From the NCBI GenBank assembly GCA_036785375.1, contig JAWMAR010000269.1, forward strand, positions 744,001 to 808,000: 64,000 nt of DNA, in the 5' to 3' direction. Shown piece by piece: positions 3,840-38,203 of the stretch. The notes under the pieces are model-generated. The model saw only the letters and a program-made list of their open reading frames with translations. It did no database searches and had not been told where the DNA came from. The stretch's first letter is position 1. The number at the start of each line of letters is the position of its first letter. The position numbers and the translations under genes are program-made. The DNA is from Leucoraja ocellata (lineage: Eukaryota).

Positions 3840-4275
3840 CCACTGGGCCTGTACTCGCTGGAGTTTAAAAGAATGAGGGGGGGGGCCTCATTGATACGTA
3901 CCGAATAGTCAAAGGCTTGAATAGAGTTGATGTGAAGAGGATGTTTCCACTAGTGGGAGAGTCTAGGACTCGAGGTCATAGCCTTAGAATTAAAGGATGT
4001 TCCTTGAGGTAAGATGAGAAGGAATGTCTTTAGTCAGAGGGTGGTGAATCTGTGGAATCGTTTGCCACAGAAGGCAGTGGAGGCCAAGTCAATTGGTATA
4101 TTTAAGGCAGAGATAGATAAGTTCTTTAGTACAGGTGTCAGGTGTTATGGGGAGAAGGCAGGAGAATGGGGTTAGGGGGAGAGATAGATCAGCCATGATT
4201 GAATGGTGGAGTAGACTTGATGGGCCGAATGGCCTAATTCTTCTCCTATCATTTATGACCTTATGATCTTATGAA
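3840..4275 (+). mobile_element. CR1 LINE 3' end fragment
   Basis: Decayed GLYSLEF.R.RG.L..., TRGHSLRI and F.QRVV.LWN.LP coding, followed by the 3' UTR GATAGATCAGCCATGATTGAATGG...GGCCTAATTC and a short tandem tail. Confidence 0.8.
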
Positions 4276-5384
4276 CATTTACATTTACTCCTAACTTGCT
4301 GCACTGCTGGCTAACTTCCATTTTCAATTGTAGTAATCCTACTGACTTTTCCACAAGGCAATCGACACGGAGTATAGAGGGACTCACATTTTCCAGGAAC
4401 TGTACAAATGTGCCAAAATCTATTTTTGCTCAACGATTCAGTTCCTTGGAGTTTCCAGAAACATGTGTTCCAATCAGCCTAATTCAAACCCACTTACTGC
4501 AAAACACGTCACAGTTTCTGGCCCCAGAGAGAGCTGTTAAAACTGAGGATTAGATCTTGTACCAGGGCAGGTGCTTAGGTCAAACATCTGCTTACCTTGT
4601 AATAGGAAATGACAACAAATGATTGTAGATTCCAGAAATCGCTACAGAAAATGCTGAAAACACTCAAAAGGCAGGTAGTATCCATGGATATAGAAATACG
4701 GTGAAATTTAGGAAACATTTGTGAAAACAAACGTTAGTTTTAAGATGTGGAGGAGGGTGGCTTAAGATAATAGGCATGCCTGTAGTAGGTTTGGGCCAAT
4801 ATTGTTGTGAGCATGAGTTATTAATGAGGAGGTTGAAGGGTAAAAATGAAGCGTGTGGTGTTGCATCTAGCGGGTCGGTGTGTGTTAATTCAGTGGGGAA
4901 AATGAGTCAATATTACTTACGGCAGAAGTGGCCAGTTCTTCGCTGCTCAGCATCACATCTACAGAGTGGGCTCTCAAGCATACAGATATGAAAATGAACC
5001 AACAGTTGAAAGCCAAGACATATTAAAGAGAGCAAAGTGGAAGAAACTCAGCGGGCCAGGCAAGAAGAAATGAGTGACTTTTCGGGACCTGACCCAAACG
5101 TCAGAAGAAGGGTCTCGACCCAAAACATCATCCATTCTTTCTCTCCAGTGATGCTGCCTGTTCTGCTGAGTTACTCCAGTGTTTTGTGTCTATCTTCAGT
5201 TTAAATCAGCATCTGCAGTTCCTTCCTATGCAAAATGGAAGCAGATTTGTTAAAAGATCTTGAAGTGCTTAGAAGATCCTTTTTATAAAGACCTTTATTT
5301 CAACTGCATATCTCTGTCTAGGTTAGGTAGCAGATTCAATGGTGAAGACTCATTTCCTTCACAGGTGATCCTAGGATTTCTGAC

Positions 5385-27059: not shown

Positions 27060-27473
27060 TGAGTTGTTTGGCCTGCCCTGTGCTTGAAATTGAAATGGAA
27101 ATGAAATGAAATTAGTTGTTTGGCCTGCCTTGTGCTTTTGTTTTGCTTTGCTTGAGCTCACCTGAAATGAAAGCAAATGGATTGTATTGTTGGCTGGCTC
27201 CACCTTCCCTATGCTTTTGCTTTTGCTTTGCCTTTGTTTTGATTGAGCTCACCTGAAATGAAAGCAAATGATTTGTATTGTTGGCTGGCCTTGCCTGCCC
27301 TGTGCTTGACTTGACTTGAAATGAATTGACTTGATATGAAATGGATTGAGATGGATTGTTGGCCCTACACTCACTGTGCTTGACTTGACTTGAAAGCAAA
27401 TAGATTGTATTGTTGGTTGGCTCTGCCTTCCCTATGCTTTTGCTTTTGCTTTGCCTTTGTTTTGCTTGAGCTC
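27060..27473. repeat. Complex tandem repeat
   Basis: Recurring GTTGTTTGGCCTGCC.TGTGCTT, TTGAGCTCACCTGAAATGAAAGCAAAT and (GCTTTT)n/(CTTGA)n blocks. Confidence 0.85.
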
Positions 27474-30195
27474 AGTGGCGATCAGTGAAACATGGTTGCA
27501 GGAGGGCTGTGATTGGAAACTAAATATTCCAGGATTTCGTTGCTTCAGGTGTGATAGAATTGGAGGGGCAAGAGGTGGAGGTGTTGCATTGCTTATCAGG
27601 GAAGATATTACAGCAGTGCTTTGGCAGGATAGATTAGAGGGCTTGTCTAGGGAGGCTATTTGGGTGGAACTGAGAAATGGGAAAGGGGTAGCAACACTTA
27701 TAGGGGTGTGTTATAGACTGCCAAATGGGGAGCGAGAATTGGAAGAGCAAATATGTAAGGAGATTGCAGATATTAGTAGTAAGCACAAAGTAGTGATTGT
27801 GGGAGATTTCAATTTTCCACACATAGACTGGGAAACACATTCTGTAAATGGGCTGGATGGGTTGGAGTTTGTAAAATGTGTGCAGGATAGTTTTTTGCAG
27901 CAATACATAGAAGTACTTACTAGAGAAGGGGCGGTGCTGGACCTCCTGTTAGGAAATGAGACGGGTCAGGTGGCAGAGGTATGCGTTGGGGAACAGTTCA
28001 GGACCAGTGATCACAATACCATTAGTTTCAATATAATTATGGAGAGGGTCAGAACTGGACCTAGGGTTGAGATTTTTGATTGGAGAAAGGCTAACTTTGA
28101 GGAGATGCGAAAGGATTTAAAAGAAGTCAATTGGGACAGTTTGTTTTATGGGAAAGATGTGGAAGAGAAATGGAAGACATTTAAAGGTGAAATTTTAAGA
28201 GTACGGAATCTTTATGTCCCTGTTCGGTTGAAAGGAAATAGTAAAAATTGGAAAGAACCATGGTTTTCAAGGGAAATTGGACACCTGGTTCGCAAAAAGA
28301 GAGAGATCTACAATAATTATAGGCAGCATGGAGTAAATGAGGTGCTTGAGGAGTATAAAGAATGTAAAAAGAATCTTAAGAAAGAAATTAGAAAAGCTAA
28401 AAGAAGATATGAGGTTGCTTTGGCAAGTAAGGTGAAAGTAAATCCAAAGGGTTTCTACAGCTATATTAATAGCAAAAGGATAACGAGGGATAAAATTGGT
28501 CCATTAGAGAGTCAGAGTGGACAGCTATCTGCAGAGCCAAAAGAGATGGGGGAGATATTGAACAATTTCCTTTCTTCGATATTCACCAAGGAGAAGGATA
28601 TTGAATTATGTGAGGTAAGGGAAACAAGTAGAGTAGCTATGGAAACTATGAGATTCAAAGAAGAGGAAGTACTGACACTTTTGAGAAATATAAAAGTGGA
28701 TAAGTCTCTAGATCCGGACAGGATATTTCCTAGGACATTGAGGGAAGTTAGTGTAGAAATAGCAGGGGCTATGACAGAAATATTTCAAATGTCATTAGAA
28801 ACAGGAATAGTGCCGGAGGATTGGCGTACTGCGCATGTTGTTCCATTGCTTAAAAAGGGGTCTAAGAGTAAACCTAGCAATTATAGACCTGTTAGTTTGA
28901 CGTCAGTGGTGGGAAAATTAATGGAAAGGATACTTAGAGATAATATATATAAGCATCTGGATAAACAGGGTCTGATTAGGAACAGTCAACATGGATTTGT
29001 GCCTGGAAGGTCATGTTTGACTAATCTTCTTGAATTTTTTGAAGAGGTTACTCGGGAAATTGATGAGGGTAAAGCAGTGGATGTTGTATATATGGATTTC
29101 AGTAAGGCTTTTGACAAGGTTCCTCACGGAAGGTTGGTTAAGAAGGTTCAATGGTTGGGTATTAATGGTGGAGTAGCAAGATGTATTCAACAGTGGCTGA
29201 ATGGGAGATGCCAGAGAGTAATGGTGGATGGTTGTTTGTCAGGTTGGAGGCCAGTGACTAGTGGGGTGCCACAGGGATCTGTGTTGGGTCCACTGTTGTT
29301 TGTCATGTACATCAATGATCTGGATGATGGTGTGGTAAATTGGATTAGTAAGTATGCAGATGATACTAAGATAGGTGGGGTTGTGGATAATGAAATAGAT
29401 TTTCAAAGTCTACAGAGAGATTTATGCCAGTTGGAAGAGTGGGCTGAAAGATGGCAGATGGAGTTTAATGCTGATAAGTGTGAGGTGCTACATCTTGGCA
29501 GGACAAATCAAAATAGGACGTACATGGTAAATGGTAGGGAATTGAAGAATGCAGGTGAACAGAGGGATCTGGGAATAACTGTGCACAGTTCCCTGAAAGT
29601 GGAATCTCATGTAGATAGGGTGGTAAAGAAAGCTTTTGGTGTGCTGGCCTTTACAAATCAGAGCATTGAGTATAGAAGTTGGGATGTAATGTTAAAATTG
29701 TACAAGGCATTGGTGAGGCCAATTCTGGAGTATGGTGTACAATTTTGGTTGCCAAATTATAGGAAAGACATCATCAAAATAGAGAGAGTACAGAGGAGAT
29801 TTACTAGAATGTTGCCTGGGTTTCAGCAACTAAGTTACAGAGAAAGGTTGAACAAGTTAGGGCTTTATTCTTTGGAGCGCAGAAGGTTAAGGGGGGACTT
29901 TAGAGAGGTCTTTAAAATGATGAGAGGGATAGACAGAGTTTACGTGGATAAGCTTTTCCCACTGAGAGTAGGGAAGATTCAAACAAGGGGACATGACTTA
30001 AGAATTAAGGGACAGAAGTTTAGGGGTAACATGAGGGGGAACTTCTTTACTCAGAGAGTGGTGGCTGTGTGGAATGAGCTTCCAGTGAAGGTGGTGGAGG
30101 TAGGTTTGTTTTTATTATTAAAAAATAAATTGGATAGATATATGGACGGGAAAGGAATGGAAGGTTATGGTCTGAACGCAGGTGTATGGGACTAG
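27451..30195 (+). CDS. CR1 ORF2: APE endonuclease (N-terminus missing) + reverse transcriptase
   Basis: 914-codon ORF with VAISETWL, GGGVALL, VGDFNFP, LDLLL, SDHN (APE) and NYRPVSLTS, QHGF, YMDFSKAFDKV, GVPQGSVLGP, YADD (RT). The first ~8 codons come from the upstream repeat; the first in-frame ATG is at 28039. Confidence 0.9.
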   Translation: MPLFCLSSVAISETWLQEGCDWKLNIPGFRCFRCDRIGGARGGGVALLIREDITAVLWQDRLEGLSREAIWVELRNGKGVATLIGVCYRLPNGERELEEQICKEIADISSKHKVVIVGDFNFPHIDWETHSVNGLDGLEFVKCVQDSFLQQYIEVLTREGAVLDLLLGNETGQVAEVCVGEQFRTSDHNTISFNIIMERVRTGPRVEIFDWRKANFEEMRKDLKEVNWDSLFYGKDVEEKWKTFKGEILRVRNLYVPVRLKGNSKNWKEPWFSREIGHLVRKKREIYNNYRQHGVNEVLEEYKECKKNLKKEIRKAKRRYEVALASKVKVNPKGFYSYINSKRITRDKIGPLESQSGQLSAEPKEMGEILNNFLSSIFTKEKDIELCEVRETSRVAMETMRFKEEEVLTLLRNIKVDKSLDPDRIFPRTLREVSVEIAGAMTEIFQMSLETGIVPEDWRTAHVVPLLKKGSKSKPSNYRPVSLTSVVGKLMERILRDNIYKHLDKQGLIRNSQHGFVPGRSCLTNLLEFFEEVTREIDEGKAVDVVYMDFSKAFDKVPHGRLVKKVQWLGINGGVARCIQQWLNGRCQRVMVDGCLSGWRPVTSGVPQGSVLGPLLFVMYINDLDDGVVNWISKYADDTKIGGVVDNEIDFQSLQRDLCQLEEWAERWQMEFNADKCEVLHLGRTNQNRTYMVNGRELKNAGEQRDLGITVHSSLKVESHVDRVVKKAFGVLAFTNQSIEYRSWDVMLKLYKALVRPILEYGVQFWLPNYRKDIIKIERVQRRFTRMLPGFQQLSYRERLNKLGLYSLERRRLRGDFREVFKMMRGIDRVYVDKLFPLRVGKIQTRGHDLRIKGQKFRGNMRGNFFTQRVVAVWNELPVKVVEVGLFLLLKNKLDRYMDGKGMEGYGLNAGVWD

Positions 30196-30270: not shown

Positions 30271-30743
30271 ACGATAGCCGCTAACTTGGAATATGTTGCC
30301 ACAAAAGGTCACCAATTTCAAATATCAGGCAAAAACGTTAATTGGAGTGTTTTGTGACAATGTTTGTTTGAAAGTGTTTTGCCTTTTCTTTTGAATCCAA
30401 CGACCTGTCATCTTTCAAATTCAGATAAAACCTATAATCAGTGGTTAATTTTTCTATGATGGAGAAAATCAATAATTGGATAAAAAATGGATTGCAATAT
30501 TTAGGAATTCTATCCACTGACAGAAGGCGCCAAACATGCTCCAATCTTTATGACAATAGGAAGGGAAACCTCTGTTAGGTATTTTAGAACCATTTTACTT
30601 TCTCCTTTGAGAAGTTAATCATAATTACTATGAATATTCTGCTGTTTGTTTGTTCCAATCTCTTAAGAGAGACCTCTTGTCAGAGGTTATGGTGAGAAGG
30701 CAGGAGAATGGGGTAAGGAGAGAGAGATAGATCAGCCATGATT

Positions 30744-31874
30744 TCATATTGAATATTTTTATTGAAGGAAAGATACAATACAGCTGACGTAATGCATTAC
30801 AATTTTGTTTTTTATATACAACAACAAAGTTACCCTCGCTCACCCTCCCTGAACACCCCTTGGCAGCTGATGTGTTCACAATACAACATATCACAAATAC
30901 AAATGCACATTTTGACAGCAATACCTCTATATTCTTCCAAGGTTCAGGCCCATACATACCCACAACATGTCAGATGGTTCAGAATGCACTCATTCATTAT
31001 GCATCAACCATCCTGTGAGGTAATCAACATTTGTGTAAACAAAAATAAATAAATACATAAAAGTAAAACATAAATAAAGGCAGATCCCCATCTACAATCA
31101 AGTGCCCTCAGTCAGTGGGTAGTTATTTTAGACTCTCAAAGTATGACAAAAAAAGGTTTTCATTTCGAATAAAACTTATTCACAGACACCCTCAGTGTAA
31201 ATTTGATCTTTTCTAGTTTTAGAAAAAACATTACGTCCTCCAGCCAAGCGGCAGCAGATGGAGGAGTGGTAGATTTCCAGACCAGCAAAATTCTCCTACG
31301 AGCCAAAAGCGATGTGAGTGCAATGATGTCAGATTGGTTAGCATTTAAACCCAAAGTTTCATCTGCTACACCGAATACAGCTACAAGCGGGCAAGGCCTC
31401 ACTGTCACCCCAAGGACTTCACTGATGGTTTTAAAAACCACTGCCCAGTAGTCACCAAGTTTGGGGCAGGACCAGAATGCATGAGCTAGATTGGCTGGAG
31501 AGAAGGAGCACCTGTCACAACCAGTGTCTGTCCCCAGATATATGTCAGCAAGTGTGGCTTTGCTTAAATGAGTCCTGTGTAAAACTTTGAATTGTATGAG
31601 CCTCAATCTAGCACTTGATGATGAGGAATGGACTCTTGTTAGTGCTTCTGTCCAGCATTCCCCAGACAGATCCATACCAAGGTCATCCTCCCACCTAGTT
31701 TTAGCTTTGTTCAGGTTTTGATCTCCTAAAGACATCAATTGAGAATATAATACAGAGATCAGTCCTTGATTTGCAAATATAAGGGTGAGTTTATCCAACA
31801 TTGTGACAGGCAGGAGATCAGGAAAAGAGGGAAATGTTTTCATGGCAAAGTGGCGGATCTGAAGATATTTAAAG
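30744..31874 (-). mobile_element. LINE-1 clade 3' end (ORF2 C-terminus with CCHC motif + 3' UTR)
   Basis: FKYLQIRHF...WEDDLG...LIQFKVLHRTHL...CDRC......LAHAFWSCPKL..YW...ARRRILLVWK; AATAAA at the 3' end. Confidence 0.9.
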
Positions 31875-31981
31875 AAAAAAATATGGAACGCTTGACGAAT
31901 TTGCATGTCATCCTTGCGATGAGGCCATGCTAATCTTCTCTATCTTTCCAATTTTAGTATATGTGCTGCCGATGCAAGCAT
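31875..31981 (-). pseudogene. RNU6: Full-length U6 snRNA retrocopy fused to L1
   Basis: The reverse complement ATGCTTGCATCGGCAGCACATATACTAAAATTGGAAAGATAGAGAAGATTAGCATGGCCTCATCGCAAGGATGACATGCAAATTCGTCAAGCGTTCCATATTTTTTT matches vertebrate U6 end to end with scattered changes. The ACAGAGA box is damaged by a 2-nt deletion. Confidence 0.97.
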
Positions 31982-32579
31982 GATCTTCCATGATTGAATG
32001 ACAGAGTTGACTTGATAGGCCAAATGGCCTAATTCTGCTCCTCTCACTGATGATATTATGATCTTAATGAATTCCAATCACATTTTTTTTGCAATGTCTC
32101 TACTGCCAAGTACGCCATTATTTTCTGGTCAAAGTAGATTTTATAATGGTCTTCTATGTCTGACAGTTGATGGAGTTTTGTCTACAGCAAAGTTAAAAGT
32201 TAAACACGCTCTCTGACTGCTGAGATTGCTGCTCTCTCCATTTAACAGTAATGAGTAATTACTATCAATTGGTCTTAAAAGGCAAAGGCAGCTGACTATT
32301 TCAGTAAGTGGCAGCATTTATTTTGCATTAACATCTTTATTACTGCACAGAACCCTGACAATTCAAATGTCTACTGTGCATATTTTGTGCAGAGTGGATG
32401 GATTAAAAGGTATAAAAATGAATTCTGCAGACAATTAGGTAAGTAAATACTGTCAAATGAATGGGTGAAATTAATTTATTGGATTTCCGTTAAATAGTGA
32501 TGTCAAGGGACAAGGAAAAAAGGCAGGGAAATCCATGAGGTATAGATAAGGCATGATTATAGTGGGAAAGTGGTTCAGG

Positions 32580-32880
32580 ATTAAAGGTTCCAGGATAAAA
32601 GACTTGTGGTGATGGGGGAAAGAATTAATAGGAATCTAGGGGGTAGGTTTTTCACACAAAGGGTGGTGGGTGTATGGAACAAGCTACCAGAGGAGGTAGT
32701 TGAGGCAGGGACTATCCTAAAATTTATGAAACAGTTAGACAGGTACATGGATAGGACAGTTTTGGAGGGATATTGACCCAACACGGGCAGGTGGGGCTAG
32801 CATAGCTGGGACATATTGGCCGGTGTGGACAAGTTTGGCCGAAGGGCCTGTTTCCACACTGTATCACCCTATGACTCAAT
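32580..32880 (+). mobile_element. CR1 3' fragment
   Basis: RNLGGRFFTQRVVGVWNKLPEEVVEAG...LDRYMD plus the tail GGCCGAAGGGCCTGTTTCC. Confidence 0.85.
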
Positions 32881-33225: not shown

Positions 33226-34667
33226 ATAGCATGGAAACAGGCCTTTTGACCCATGGATTTTACTTCGGAGTCACGTGAGTGACTTCGTGAAGAACCCCGC
33301 TTCCACGCATGCGTGCCATATCGCTACACGCATTGCAACGAGTCACACAGAGGGGAACGGCGTTCCCCAAGCGGGAGAATTTGAAAGTCGGGAACAGCAG
33401 GTAAGAGACTCTGCGTTCCTTTTTTCTACTTACCTTTTAGGTGGCTGCGGAAAGCTGGCGGGGGAGACCCGTGGAGTGCGAGCAGCCGGCAGCAGCAACG
33501 GCACGAGTTTCCCTGGAGGGGAACAACCTGTGCCCGACTTTGCTCCCGCACCGGCAAAATTCACTTCTCGGCCGGGCGGGAAGCAAAGCAAAGAGGTCCC
33601 GTATGCCAGTCTCAAGCGAGACTGGCTTGGAGCAGTCGCTAGCGGCCAGCGCGGAGGCAGCAGGACAGAGAGCAGGGACCAGCGCTGTAAGTACCTGGGG
33701 TACACAGCAGGGCTGGAAACGCTCAGCGAGTGCAGCGGCACTAATGGAGCTAGGAACTGGACGTCCGGGCCGAAAACCTTCTTCAAAAGGTAAGCACCGG
33801 GGTTGGTCCAAGGGGTCCCTAGGTACAGCCGGGTTTTACCGGCTGCGGAACTGCCGCGAAGGACCAGGGCCGTGAACTCCGGGGTCGGTCCGAGCGGCTC
33901 AAACCCAACACACAGGGAACGACGTGGGAGCACTCCGGAGCCGACACAGCCCCAAAGACCGACGCTACATGGGCCTGGGGCTGTGGAACAGGTAGGAGAA
34001 TTCCTTACCTTTCTTATTCTTTCCAGGAAGGCTGACGAGCTGCCGTTTCTACAGCAGCAGTCAGCCAGCAACGGAAGTCGGCACCACTGTCTCCCAGAAC
34101 GGGAGCGAGTGCCAACTTCACCCCATACGGGGTGAAGGGAAAAACAGAGCCAACAACCCACAAAACAGTGGGTTGTATTAGGGCTCTGGCACTTTTAAAA
34201 TTAACGGAGAAGGACCAGCCCCTTAAACACCGGGGTCGGTCCGAGCGGTTCAAACCCGACACGCAGGGAACAACGGAGAATGAAAAGTCGGGAACAGCAG
34301 GTAGGAGACTCTGCGTTTCCTTCCATTTACTTTTAGGTGCAGACATGGACTGGGTCCATGTAAGGTGCTGGCAGCGGCAGGAGCACTGGCAGTGGCAGGA
34401 GCAGCAGCGGCAGGAGCGGCAGCGGCAGGAGCGGCAGCGGCAGCCGGCAGCGGTAGGAGCAACATGGGCACATCGATTCCCGGAGGGGGAAAACATCTGT
34501 GCCCAACTTCGCTCCAGCACGGTGAGAAAATTCATTTCTCAGCAGCAGCAGTAACGGCCAGCGCCGAGGCCAAGGACTTTGCAGTGCAGTTGACTGGCTG
34601 CAATCTACCACAAGGGACCAGTAATGTGAGTACCAGGGTCGGTCCCAGCGGGGTTTTAGTTACAGTA

Positions 34668-34761
34668 ATCGCTTCTCGGCCTTTTGGCTAAGATCAAGTG
34701 TAGTATCTGTTCTTATCAGTTTAATATCTGATACGTCCCTTATCTAGGGACCATATATTAA
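34668..34761 (+). pseudogene. RNU2: U2 snRNA 5' fragment (nt 1-94)
   Basis: ATCGCTTCTCGGCCTTTTGGCTAAGATCAAGTGTAGTATCTGTTCTTATCAGTTTAATATCTGATACGTCC matches the conserved vertebrate U2 5' end. Stem IIb GTCCCT-TATCT-AGGGAC pairs. The copy stops before the Sm site. Confidence 0.97.
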
Positions 34762-34769
34762 TTAAAAAC

Positions 34770-34828
34770 TATAGTAGCTGTTATTATCAGTTTAATGTCT
34801 TATATGTTCCTTATCTAAGGACCATATA
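34770..34828 (+). pseudogene. RNU2: Second, diverged U2 fragment (nt ~32-90)
   Basis: TATAGTAGCTGTTATTATCAGTTTAATGTCTTATATGTTCCTTATCTAAGGACCATATA has 8 mismatches in 59 nt against the first copy. Confidence 0.9.
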
Positions 34829-35559
34829 AGTAAGAGTGCCCAGAATTGAGGGCATTAGAGTGGGGTTGACCGGCTGCAACGACCACAAGGGGCCAGTACT
34901 GTCAGTACGGGGGTCGGTCCCAGGGGTCTAAGATAAAGGAGCAGCCAGGAGCGCTGAGAGCGTTGAAGCCGGGTTAAGAAATAGATGGAATCAGATGTGC
35001 CAGTTATCCTCCACACCGGCCATATCCACTCCACGGAAGGAAGGACAAAGCTGGAGAAGGAGGACCGTGGAACAACGGGCAGCCAGCAGCAGCCAGCGGG
35101 ACTTGGATCACCCGTAGTGGGATCAGCTGTGCCCGATGTCGGCCCCGCACCGGCCAGATCCAGGCGGCCGAGCGGTAAGGCTAGACACAAATCAAGCAAG
35201 GTAGTGGACTCAGGGGGTCCGACTTTGCATAAAACCGCCGGCAACCAGCGCCCGAGAGGGCTGGAGCGGGAAGAAGCGGTGTATGGAGCCTTGCTCCAAC
35301 GTGATAAACCCACAGCAGTACCTCTTTGAGGGCTGCACAATGCTTCTACCCCATCAGAGGGGAGCACTGTGGGTCAGTTCTGGGTTGACTTGCAAGAGGG
35401 GTCCGCAGAACAAAAGACAAGTGGGCAGCAGTTAAGCCCCACATGGGTACCCCGTGTGGGACCCTAGAGATCTCTAACTCTAAAAAAGAGTAGGCAGGAC
35501 CCTGATGGGCCAGAGCCTGGTAATACAGCATCCCATGATCCTAACACAGCAGGGACTCT

Positions 35560-35960
35560 GCTGGACATGGTGGCTGATTACTTTAACCAAGTCAAACATG
35601 GGTAGACTTGGATCCAGGATGGCAATAGTATTACTATATGTCTGGCCACAAACGCCAACAAGGAAAATTTACAGACACTGGCCAGACATCTGCCACCTGG
35701 CAACGGTGAGGCATTACAGGTGCCCAGTGTAAACCAATGCATTTGGCAGCAGATGGGGACGAACATCAGGAACCAGGACCTCAAGATCCACAGAACCTTA
35801 AAGGGATTGACGGAAGGCATCATAGCATACACCCGCACCCTGGACTAAACGTAGGTAACCAAAAGACCATCAAGACGCACCAGCTCTGTTTAGTAATATG
35901 CAATATGACCTGAACTACACGTGGAAGGCGGCCATTCAGCCAGCACAGGGACCCCAAAAT
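35560..35960 (+). pseudogene. DIRS gag-like ORF relic
   Basis: RHLPPGNGEALQVPSVNQCIWQQMGTNIRNQDLKIH matches the P.N...L.VP.VN..IW......R..D pattern of DIRS ORF1. Frameshifted. Confidence 0.7.
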
Positions 35961-36279
35961 ATGCTACCATTTGCAAATAAAGAACCGTGTGTGGACAAAG
36001 CCAAGACACTGGGGCTCATCAAGGCCAGCGCAAGGGCCTATTTTGGAGTATGATACCAGCCACAGGCAAGGCCATAAAAAATGTGGCTCATACCAGTGGC
36101 AGTGCCAGAAATCAATATTACCCTGGAAGATGCGGAAGACTCAACCTCCCACATAACTCCGAACAAGAGATATCAAACCAGAACCTCCTTTTCAAAAAAC
36201 CAAGGAAATAACACAACCACCGGTAACCATGGAGGTAGGTGGGTGGGGTTTTTTCTTCTGTTAAAATAGGGACCTACGA

Positions 36280-36600
36280 TGGTAGGGGAGGTTGTAACAC
36301 TACAGTTATGTATGGTATATAATCGCTACAGATTCATATAATCTCAGCAGTATTCAGGGTTATCTGATAGGATTTACTCATCCCAATAACCACAGTACAA
36401 CATACACCAGAAGGGCATTTTGTCCTTACCTAAACCAAACAATTCTAAAACTAGCTTCGCATTGTTATGTAAACAAAGCCATAGGGTGATGTATTTCCCC
36501 CGTTCGGCCCCATCAATGGGGTACTAGGGAAAATTCAACTACACTCGGCATCTGGAATTCTCAGAGTACCCGACTGACCTTCAAAATCATGGTATTCGGT
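36280..36600 (+). pseudogene. DIRS pol relic: RT N-terminal start close to the MT-like C-terminus
   Basis: GRL*HYSYVWYIIATDSYNLSSIQGYLIGF (36286-36376), then ~110 nt later VFPPFGPINGVLGKIQ...GILRVPD*PSKSWY (36491-36595). The RT/RH core is absent. Confidence 0.75.
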
Positions 36601-36645
36601 CATACAGGGGATGGTGTTACAACCATGTTCCCTAATGAACAAGGG

Positions 36646-36687
<42 letters not shown>
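36646..36687. repeat. Poly(A) tract (~42 nt) inside the DIRS
   Basis: Directly visible. Confidence 0.95.
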
Positions 36688-36688
<1 letters not shown>

Positions 36689-36775
36689 ATGGATTTATCC
36701 AGTGACTGGAGGCAGTCATCCATGCCATAAGACTATGGATTTATTGATTTGTAGAGTCTAAAAGACCCACTACAC

Positions 36776-37635
36776 GGCTTTCGGCTGTCAGACAGGGCGA
36801 TGAATCTCATCTCATCTGCACTAAGACTGTCAACACGGAAGCAGTACCTTGGACACATCAAGAAATGGGGCATATACTGCTTGGACAACAACCTCGACCA
36901 AAGGCCAAGAACTTTCTGGCCGTATTGGAATTTTAACAAGCCTCCATTATGATAATCGATGGAGCTACAGTGCCATCAATAGTGCCACAAGTGCACTCTC
37001 CAATTACCTATCACAAGGAACGGAGCGGCACGAGGTGGGAACGCACCCCTGGTAAGAAAACCAGGTACTCCAAAATCTGGGACGTGGGTGTCGTTTTCTC
37101 AATATGCTGAGGAGCTTGTAGCTCATAACAGCGTTGTCACTTCAGTAACAGACCAGGAAGATGGTTATGCTCATGGTGTTATTTACCGCACAACAAGTCC
37201 AGCCATTAAGCAAACTGCGCCTGGACTCCCTGATCATCTCACCGAGAAACTGGTGTTGTCATACAGGATTTAATAAAAGAAAACAGATTGGTTTCCTTGG
37301 GTCAAGTGTTTGAATTTATGGTACACCCATATGGCAAACGACTGTGTATAGCAAGACACATCTAACAATACATAGAATATACTAAGAACATTCGAGGTCA
37401 GGAAATGGAGTTGTTTATCTCTCACAAGAAACCGCATGAAAGGGTTACGACTCAAACTATATTAAGGTGGCTCAAATAGGTCCTAAAAATGACACTAATG
37501 TTTTAACTCTCATTCCACCAGGGCTGCAGCAACATCCGCAGCAAAAATTGTACAGGTACCCACAGACCAAATCCTCAGAATGACAGGATGGTCATTCAAA
37601 AAGGGTTTTCCACAGGTTTTATAATAAACCAGTTA
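36776..37635 (+). pseudogene. DIRS tyrosine recombinase relic
   Basis: LSDRAMNLISSALRLSTRKQY..HIKKW; SYSAINSATSALS...VGTHP; IWDV; HSTRAAATSAAK (37511); ILRMTGWS; then, after a frameshift, VFHRFYNKP with the catalytic Tyr. Confidence 0.88.
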
Positions 37636-38203
37636 TTTTTGGAGCCATCATTTGTATTAAGAAAACATTTTATGTCCAACAAAATAATTGCCCGAAAGGT
37701 TACAGGGCTATGATTCTCAAATCTTAAAAAATGTTATATAATTTTTTCATTATACCACACAACTCTTTGTATAATTGTGTTTTAAAATTACTAATGATGC
37801 TCTCTCCCAATACCCAAGGCAGTTGTGAAGCATGGACTCGTTCCACGGCATGAGGTCACAGAGCTTTGAAATCTTCACGAAGTCACTCACGTGACTCCGA
37901 AGTAAAATAGTAAGATTAAACGAGAACTTACCAGTTTGAAGTTTGATCTGTATTTTATGAGGAGTTACGATGAGGGATTTCGTGCCCTCCGCTCCCACCC
38001 TCTTATGATCATATCAAAAACTGGTATCTCTTTGATAATCTTACTATGTTAGATCATTATAGGTTCCTGTGACCTCACACCGCTGCTTTGAAGAATGGCA
38101 CGCATGCGTGGAAGCGGGGTTCTTCACGAAATCCCTCATCGTAACTCCTCATAAAATACAGATCAAACTTCAAACTGGTAAGTTCTCGTTTAATCTTACT
38201 ATT

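Follow-up and report, generated by a model that had tools for sequence, protein, structure and literature searches.

The region between positions 30730 and 31995 of the 64-kb window (the whole stretch of DNA analyzed, 64,000 nucleotides) raises the question of whether a U6 snRNA sequence and the 3' end of an L1 retrotransposon, which lie directly against each other on the minus strand, entered the genome together, and if so, how they came to be joined. The reading that we favor, at a probability of roughly 0.85, is that the locus is a dead-on-arrival U6/L1 chimeric processed pseudogene produced by one retrotransposition event.

A complete U6 copy and a 5'-truncated L1

The U6 part is complete. 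Positions 31981 to 31877 of the minus strand match Rfam model RF00026 from model position 1 to 105, with a score of 83.4 bits (E value, 9.9e-20) against a gathering score of 44, and a T run in which seven T's were counted extends the retrocopy to 31875. The full-length minus-strand U6 at 31981 to 31875 reported in the earlier note is therefore upheld, by the whole-model match and by the T run. The copy is decayed, with a 2-nt deletion in the region of the ACAGAGA box and further substitutions relative to the Rfam consensus. Its first base is likewise not the consensus G, a change that may reflect CpG decay, since that G would have formed a CpG with the last base of the target site duplication (TSD). 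The DNA upstream of U6 is CR1 3' untranslated region (UTR) up to the TSD and contains neither of the U6 promoter elements, PSE and TATA. Lacking a U6 promoter and carrying a damaged ACAGAGA box, the copy is predicted from its sequence to be neither functional nor mobile. A scan of the upstream DNA for sigma-70 promoters was set aside as inapplicable to a vertebrate.

The seven T's are followed immediately by 1,131 bp of L1 (30744 to 31874, minus strand), in an insert that measures 1,238 bp as a whole; U6 does run through its oligo-T end straight into the last ∼1.13 kb of an L1, as had been proposed. The L1 is a 5'-truncated element of non-mammalian type that starts at approximately residue 1017 of ORF2 and continues through the 3' end. 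The U6 and the ORF2 fragment have the same sense, both on the minus strand. The C-terminal part of ORF2 is a stop-free frame of 237 codons (31163 to 31873, minus strand; P0001), and over the last ∼18 codons of ORF2 the frame is broken by a premature stop, then by a frameshift, and finally by another stop. A cysteine-rich motif, CX2CX8HX4C, with the spacing of non-mammalian L1 elements is found at 31466 to 31519 (minus strand). The 3' UTR (30744 to 31107, minus strand) begins with a T-rich segment and carries an AATAAA signal at 30763 to 30758.

Because this copy retains neither an endonuclease (EN) nor a reverse transcriptase (RT) of its own, its class rests on its relatives, and all of the EN and RT evidence comes from those relatives (77% identity) and none from the donor L1. 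Pfam returned only zf-RVT for the ORF2 fragment, below threshold (E value, 0.028). In a search among proteins of 416 to 2000 amino acids, 39 of 1,948 candidates were significant relatives of the fragment, and 19 of the 39 had both EN and RT domains; the relatives are EN- and RT-containing proteins of 1,260 to 1,275 amino acids. The top matches were a misnamed protein from Mobula birostris (78% identity) and an unnamed protein of 1,271 amino acids, P0003 (77%), and the other species-labelled relatives carried an Oreochromis label (50% and 45%). A second protein search gave 28 matches, the only named one being from Hypanus sabinus at 67%. P0003 aligned end to end with human L1 ORF2p (residues 17 to 1231) at 634 bits versus 91 bits with R2.

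Related elements were also obtained from a metagenome scan, in which 113 pattern matches led to 32 related L1 loci, the closest being L001 (77%). At the DNA level, L001 could be aligned along the full length of the L1 part (70% identity, 1,202 columns), through the 3' UTR as far as the AATAAA signal, which indicates that the 3' end of the L1 is complete. The hairpin loop of the L001 EN has the length of the human L1 loop, and the L001 EN scored 137.3 bits on the wild-type L1 EN versus 122.5 bits on LTx, a described construct carrying a graft of the Tx1L loop (PMC1950540, in part). The loop and these scores, rather than a phylogeny, favor L1 proper over Tx1. In the portion of the literature available, non-mammalian L1 elements are described as having the CX2CX8HX4C spacing and a T-rich 3' UTR (PMC5381506). 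Knuckle spacing, T-rich 3' UTR, and AATAAA are all present here, and by these sequence features the L1 part is a non-mammalian-type vertebrate L1. The earlier note had allowed that the downstream piece might classify as non-L1; the ORF2p-like relatives, the L001 alignment, and the knuckle all place it within the L1 clade in the broad sense (Tx1 included), whose ORF2 of ∼1,270 amino acids combines an APE endonuclease, an RT, and a C-terminal cysteine motif. As far as the accessible part of PMC5203782 goes, only L1 fragments are recorded for Chondrichthyes.

Some of the matching ray proteins bear names unrelated to retrotransposons. P0002 and P0069, named as MEAK7 isoforms of Mobula birostris, contain L1 ORF2 sequence, and P0002, which is 78% identical to the ORF2 fragment, carries an RT domain. 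P0062, named as an ABHD10-like isoform of Hypanus sabinus, likewise contains L1 ORF2 sequence. The L1 ORF2 sequence in these proteins would represent either misannotation or exonized L1.

The target site and the number of insertion events

The whole unit is bracketed by a 14-bp TSD at the positions first proposed for it, with one copy on the side of the L1 tail (30730 to 30743) and one on the side of U6 (31982 to 31995). The two copies agree at 12 of 14 positions. The tail-side copy is identical to an intact CR1 copy at 4187 to 4200, and the U6-side copy has two adjacent mismatches to both. When random position pairs were scored over lengths of 7 to 20 and 40 offsets, leaving out pairs less than 300 bp apart, 48 of 20,000 matched the TSD score. 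On sequence grounds, stronger evidence for the TSD than this score is provided by the paralogous intact CR1 copy in the same window, which served as a model of the empty site. Of the CR1 3' UTR that the insert interrupts, the half upstream (30678 to 30743, plus strand) is 91% identical to 4136 to 4200, and the half downstream (31982 to 32085, plus strand) is 81% identical to 4187 to 4286. The two halves overlap by exactly the 14-mer of the TSD, which is single in the intact paralogue. This exact overlap makes one insertion likely, and the flanks rejoin to one CR1 3' UTR with a single 14-mer, confirming that the unit splits such a UTR. The chimera is oriented antisense to the CR1 3' UTR that it interrupts.

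The intact copy at 4136 to 4286 follows the C terminus of a CR1-type ORF2, which is 45% identical to the long CR1 ORF of the window, of 917 amino acids (E value, 5e-11). The name CR1 for this repeat is our assumption, made from its sequence motifs and its relatives in birds and turtles. An alternative division of the boundary into an 8-bp TSD plus 6 untemplated bases was rejected, as the last 4 bases before U6 match the target again. The 14-bp duplication falls within the modal range of 13 to 15 bp given for L1 TSDs of mammals and zebrafish in the available part of PMC6007223. Among those of the 32 related L1 loci that had both ends visible, a TSD search found no convincing TSD, and one 9-nt match was judged to be due to chance.

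Both parts lie within a single TSD, and the rejoined flanks contain the 14-mer once; for this reason, the proposal that U6 and L1 integrated as one event stands. In keeping with it, U6 is full length, is in the sense orientation, and sits where an L1 with a complete 3' end has been truncated on its 5' side. Three features speak against the chimera reading as a whole, namely, the missing poly(A), the 2 mismatches in the 14-bp TSD, and a nick site that matches TTTT/AA at 3 of 6 positions. Weighing these together, we hold with considerable confidence that a single insertion occurred by target-primed reverse transcription. The alternative, an L1 that inserted with its own TSD and a U6 that later hit precisely the 5' junction of that L1, or the same two insertions in reverse order, could draw on the two adjacent substitutions in the U6-side TSD copy. 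However, no spacer separates U6 from the TSD or from the L1, neither end of U6 shows a second duplication, U6 lacks a poly(A) of its own, and the first L1 bases continue a Phe-Phe-Lys frame. An L1 that had inserted into the T tract of a U6 gene would moreover be antisense, and promoter DNA would be needed upstream, whereas CR1 3' UTR is found here. Two independent insertions are accordingly very improbable.

On its left side the TSD is delimited by flank bases that differ, so the first-strand nick reads 5'-GATT/GA-3'. Compared with TTTT/AA, the mammalian L1 consensus, three of six positions match and the TT/purine core is retained. The statement that the target lacks the L1 motif thus goes too far, and the suggestion of a different endonuclease preference does not follow, since TT/purine is present at the nick and no preference can be taken from one site. 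Fish L1 elements of group F are said, in work by Ichiyanagi et al. from 2007, to have little target specificity, in which case a non-consensus site would not be new. Zebrafish L1 endonucleases group as M, F, and Tx1 in the part of PMC3747384 available.

At the other end of the insert, the 14 nt between AATAAA and the TSD contain no A run and no poly(A) tail. The junctions had been described as intact, which holds insofar as the parts abut but is overstated given the two TSD substitutions and this 14-nt gap lacking an A run. L001 has a run of eight A's located 8 nt past its AATAAA. In the chimera, 10 of the 14 end bases (30744 to 30757, minus strand) can be matched, allowing one gap, to target sequence spanning the nick, a match noticed post hoc and equaled in score by 228 of 20,000 random 26-mers (∼1%). 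The same 14 bases are accounted for nearly as well by a tandem repetition of 7 nt from the end of the L1 itself. Priming by pairing, or slippage, at a T-poor site might be read from these bases, and is only a lead. Plain erosion of a short tail is a possible cause of the missing poly(A).

A missing poly(A) run is also atypical of a fresh one-off L1 insertion, and it would be compatible with a different origin, in which the locus is one copy of an amplified SINE-like family with a U6 head and an L1 tail, the U6 counterpart of the crocodilian SINEU elements. Families of SINEs headed by snRNA do exist (PMC4494074, in part). However, the U6 promoter is described as external only, with none internal, in the available portions of PMC4494074 and PMC6789731; the L1 part looks like any 5'-truncated piece of coding sequence, its frame almost open; and no second copy of the chimera occurs within the 64-kb window. 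Weakly in the same direction, Rfam RNA was found in 0 of the 32 related L1 loci, which lie on metagenome contigs and are distant (mostly 30 to 60%) and from other hosts. No U6-headed SINE family was found in the literature searched. We consider such a family improbable. A bolder version, in which a U6-headed family of rays is moved by a fish-type L1 whose 3' end pairs with the target for priming, in place of annealing of poly(A) to a T tract, is similarly doubtful.

A nearly intact CR1-type ORF2 with 933 codons without a stop and with EN and RT relatives occupies 27394 to 30192 (plus strand) and stops ∼500 bp short of the chimera. Among the best 120 of 530 matches to this ORF, the closest named relative is from Hypanus sabinus (78%), and bird and turtle relatives are 38 to 50% identical. 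Three vertebrate proteins of the CR1 type, P0106, P0165, and P0205, carry bacterial labels (Carnobacterium, Pleurocapsa, and Brocadiaceae), which are probably due to host contamination of the records. The target 14-mer is matched a third time, again with 12 of 14 bases identical, at 32545 to 32558, probably by the decayed 3' UTR of a CR1 fragment at 32608 to 32877. Of 24 sequencing runs listed for the stretch, 20 contain part of it and 1 contains half or more of its words, with no RNA run among them; these shares carry no weight as evidence for the locus.

A decayed element with a DIRS-like end structure spans 33254 to 38203 (plus strand). Its left end (33254 to 33319) is inverted relative to 38095 to 38160 at 88% identity, and an internal region (37872 to 37984) is complementary to both ends, over 37 bp and 79 bp at 100%. 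The broken frames of the element have motifs that may correspond to DIRS gag and tyrosine recombinase; Pfam gave no match on these remnants, and no RT was seen in the element. A run of 41 A's is present at 36646 to 36686. Also inside the element, at 34668 to 34828 (plus strand), is a 5' fragment of U2 snRNA comprising approximately the first 97 nt (Rfam, 114 bits). Behind it lies another partial copy of U2 (34772 to 34828) that is 88% identical to 34701 to 34757, and both U2 copies sit between 69-bp direct repeats (34583 to 34651 and 34859 to 34926, 84% identity).

How U6 and L1 were joined

The T's at the junction can be compared with the corresponding place in related elements. Phe-Phe is encoded there in 22 of the 39 L1 relatives, including all 8 of those with at least 61% identity, and L001 has seven T's in a row. 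The first L1 bases of the chimera fit the expected Phe-Phe-Lys frame. From the T run of a Phe-Phe pair, it follows that two to three of the seven T's may be L1 derived: if the donor coded for Phe-Phe, two would come from the L1, or three if the preceding codon ended in T. A blunt join would then leave four to five T's for U6, like mature U6. In the accessible text of PMC6789731, mature human U6 is given as ending in 5 U's, chimeras from cell culture as having 4 to 6 T's, and 16 genomic human chimeras as having full U6, 5 to 7 T's, and TSDs of 6 to 19 bp. From that source, 4 to 8 T's followed directly by a 5'-truncated L1 can be taken as the range for such chimeras, and 7 T's are found here. 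RtcB was shown there to ligate U6 to cut L1 RNA.

By analogy, we lean toward an RtcB-type RNA ligation of mature U6 to cut L1 RNA, before reverse transcription, as the joining step. The other route within the same single event is template switching, in which the RT would leave the L1 RNA and resume on U6 at its oligo-U end. This is the older model for all LINE clades (PMC4476161, in part) and is still allowed in the available text of PMC6789731. A U run from the Phe-Phe codons would help such a jump, and the seven T's of L001 at that place show how an overlap of 2 to 3 nt could arise. However, when cut points were placed at random in L001, an overlap of at least two T's was obtained in 25% of cases and of at least three T's in 14%. 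Because overlap is so common at random cuts, the microhomology at the junction shows no excess over chance. The completeness of U6 up to its mature end, as ligation predicts, likewise counts against template switching, which we regard as possible and the less probable of the two. The junction itself fits RtcB ligation, and template switching, with 2 to 3 nt of microhomology, would be equally compatible with it.

The earlier note had proposed to count the L1-templated T's by alignment to an L1 consensus, to separate microhomology from ligation. Done with L1 relatives in place of a consensus, the comparison yields two to three such T's, and the two routes are not distinguished by it. Indeed, one copy does not decide between ligation and template switching.

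With ligation as the preferred route, the following course of events can be proposed. An RtcB-type ligase would have linked mature U6, ending in 5 U's and a cyclic phosphate, to an L1 RNA that had been cut, as in human cells. An L1 of the non-mammalian (fish) type would have nicked an old CR1 3' UTR at 5'-GATT/GA-3', and the RNA that was reverse transcribed would have consisted of full-length U6 with the final 1.1 kb of the L1 RNA attached at the oligo-U end. Completion of the insertion would have left the 14-bp duplication.

Relation to known chimeras

Work by Buzdin from 2002 is reportedly the reference cited for the U6/L1 chimeric pseudogenes of mammals. That such chimeras are well known in mammals agrees with the pattern in PMC6789731, but they are not confined to mammals, given the anole and platypus cases in the portion of PMC4476161 available. 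That study, by Doucet et al. in 2015, surveyed U6/LINE chimeras in 48 genomes ranging from mammals to Xenopus. According to its available text, the anole has U6 chimeras with L1, L2, and RTE (three each), the platypus has them with L2, the turkey offers a doubtful U6/CR1 case, and Xenopus has none; neither zebrafish nor shark is named in that text. Human U6/L1 chimeras are mostly full length and in the sense orientation (PMC11838501, in part), and Moldovan et al. in 2019, in the part available, called the process "ancient and ongoing." Our search of the literature, mostly non-subscription sources and with supplements aside, found no fish or shark U6/LINE chimera, which is weak evidence.

An extension of the signature to a deep-branching jawed vertebrate had been proposed for this locus. 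In each of three protein searches, the most similar named match comes from a batoid (Mobula birostris at 78%, and Hypanus sabinus at 67% and, for the neighboring CR1 ORF and among the best 120 of 530 matches, 78%), so that a ray or another elasmobranch is the likely host; yet the anole and platypus chimeras, together with an ancient and ongoing process, make the occurrence in a cartilaginous fish expected rather than surprising. The locus is real and well formed, and it is an unremarkable case of a type of chimera already known. Should the host be a ray, U6/L1 chimeras would be documented over a modestly wider range, from amniotes to a lineage that branched off at the base of the jawed vertebrates. 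An L1 of the non-mammalian type has yielded the same signature of full U6, short T run, and single TSD, and this supports the view that joining is an event of host RNA metabolism, involving the U6 3' end and a ligase, rather than a property of mammalian L1.

Among known systems, the mammalian U6/L1 chimeras share with this one a full sense U6, 5 to 7 T's, a 5'-truncated L1, and, with a range of 6 to 19 bp, the TSD. They differ in that the chimera described here is probably from a batoid, has a non-mammalian L1 with the CX2CX8HX4C knuckle, lacks a poly(A) run, and was nicked at GATT/GA, not TTTT/AA. Anolis carolinensis is likewise a non-therian vertebrate host, with three U6 copies joined to L1-like elements in the available text of PMC4476161, whereas the platypus chimeras covered there have an L2 partner and a U6 that is mostly 5' truncated. 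The crocodilian SINEU elements resemble our locus in bearing an snRNA-derived head on a retroposed unit. However, as the accessible part of PMC4494074 describes them, they are amplified, have U1 or U2 heads, and are moved by Tx1, in contrast to the one known copy, the U6 head, and the coding L1 found here. Compared by description only, the L1 elements of fish clade F would be like the L1 of this chimera and its relatives in having an ORF2 of ∼1,270 amino acids, a non-mammalian knuckle, and a non-consensus target site.
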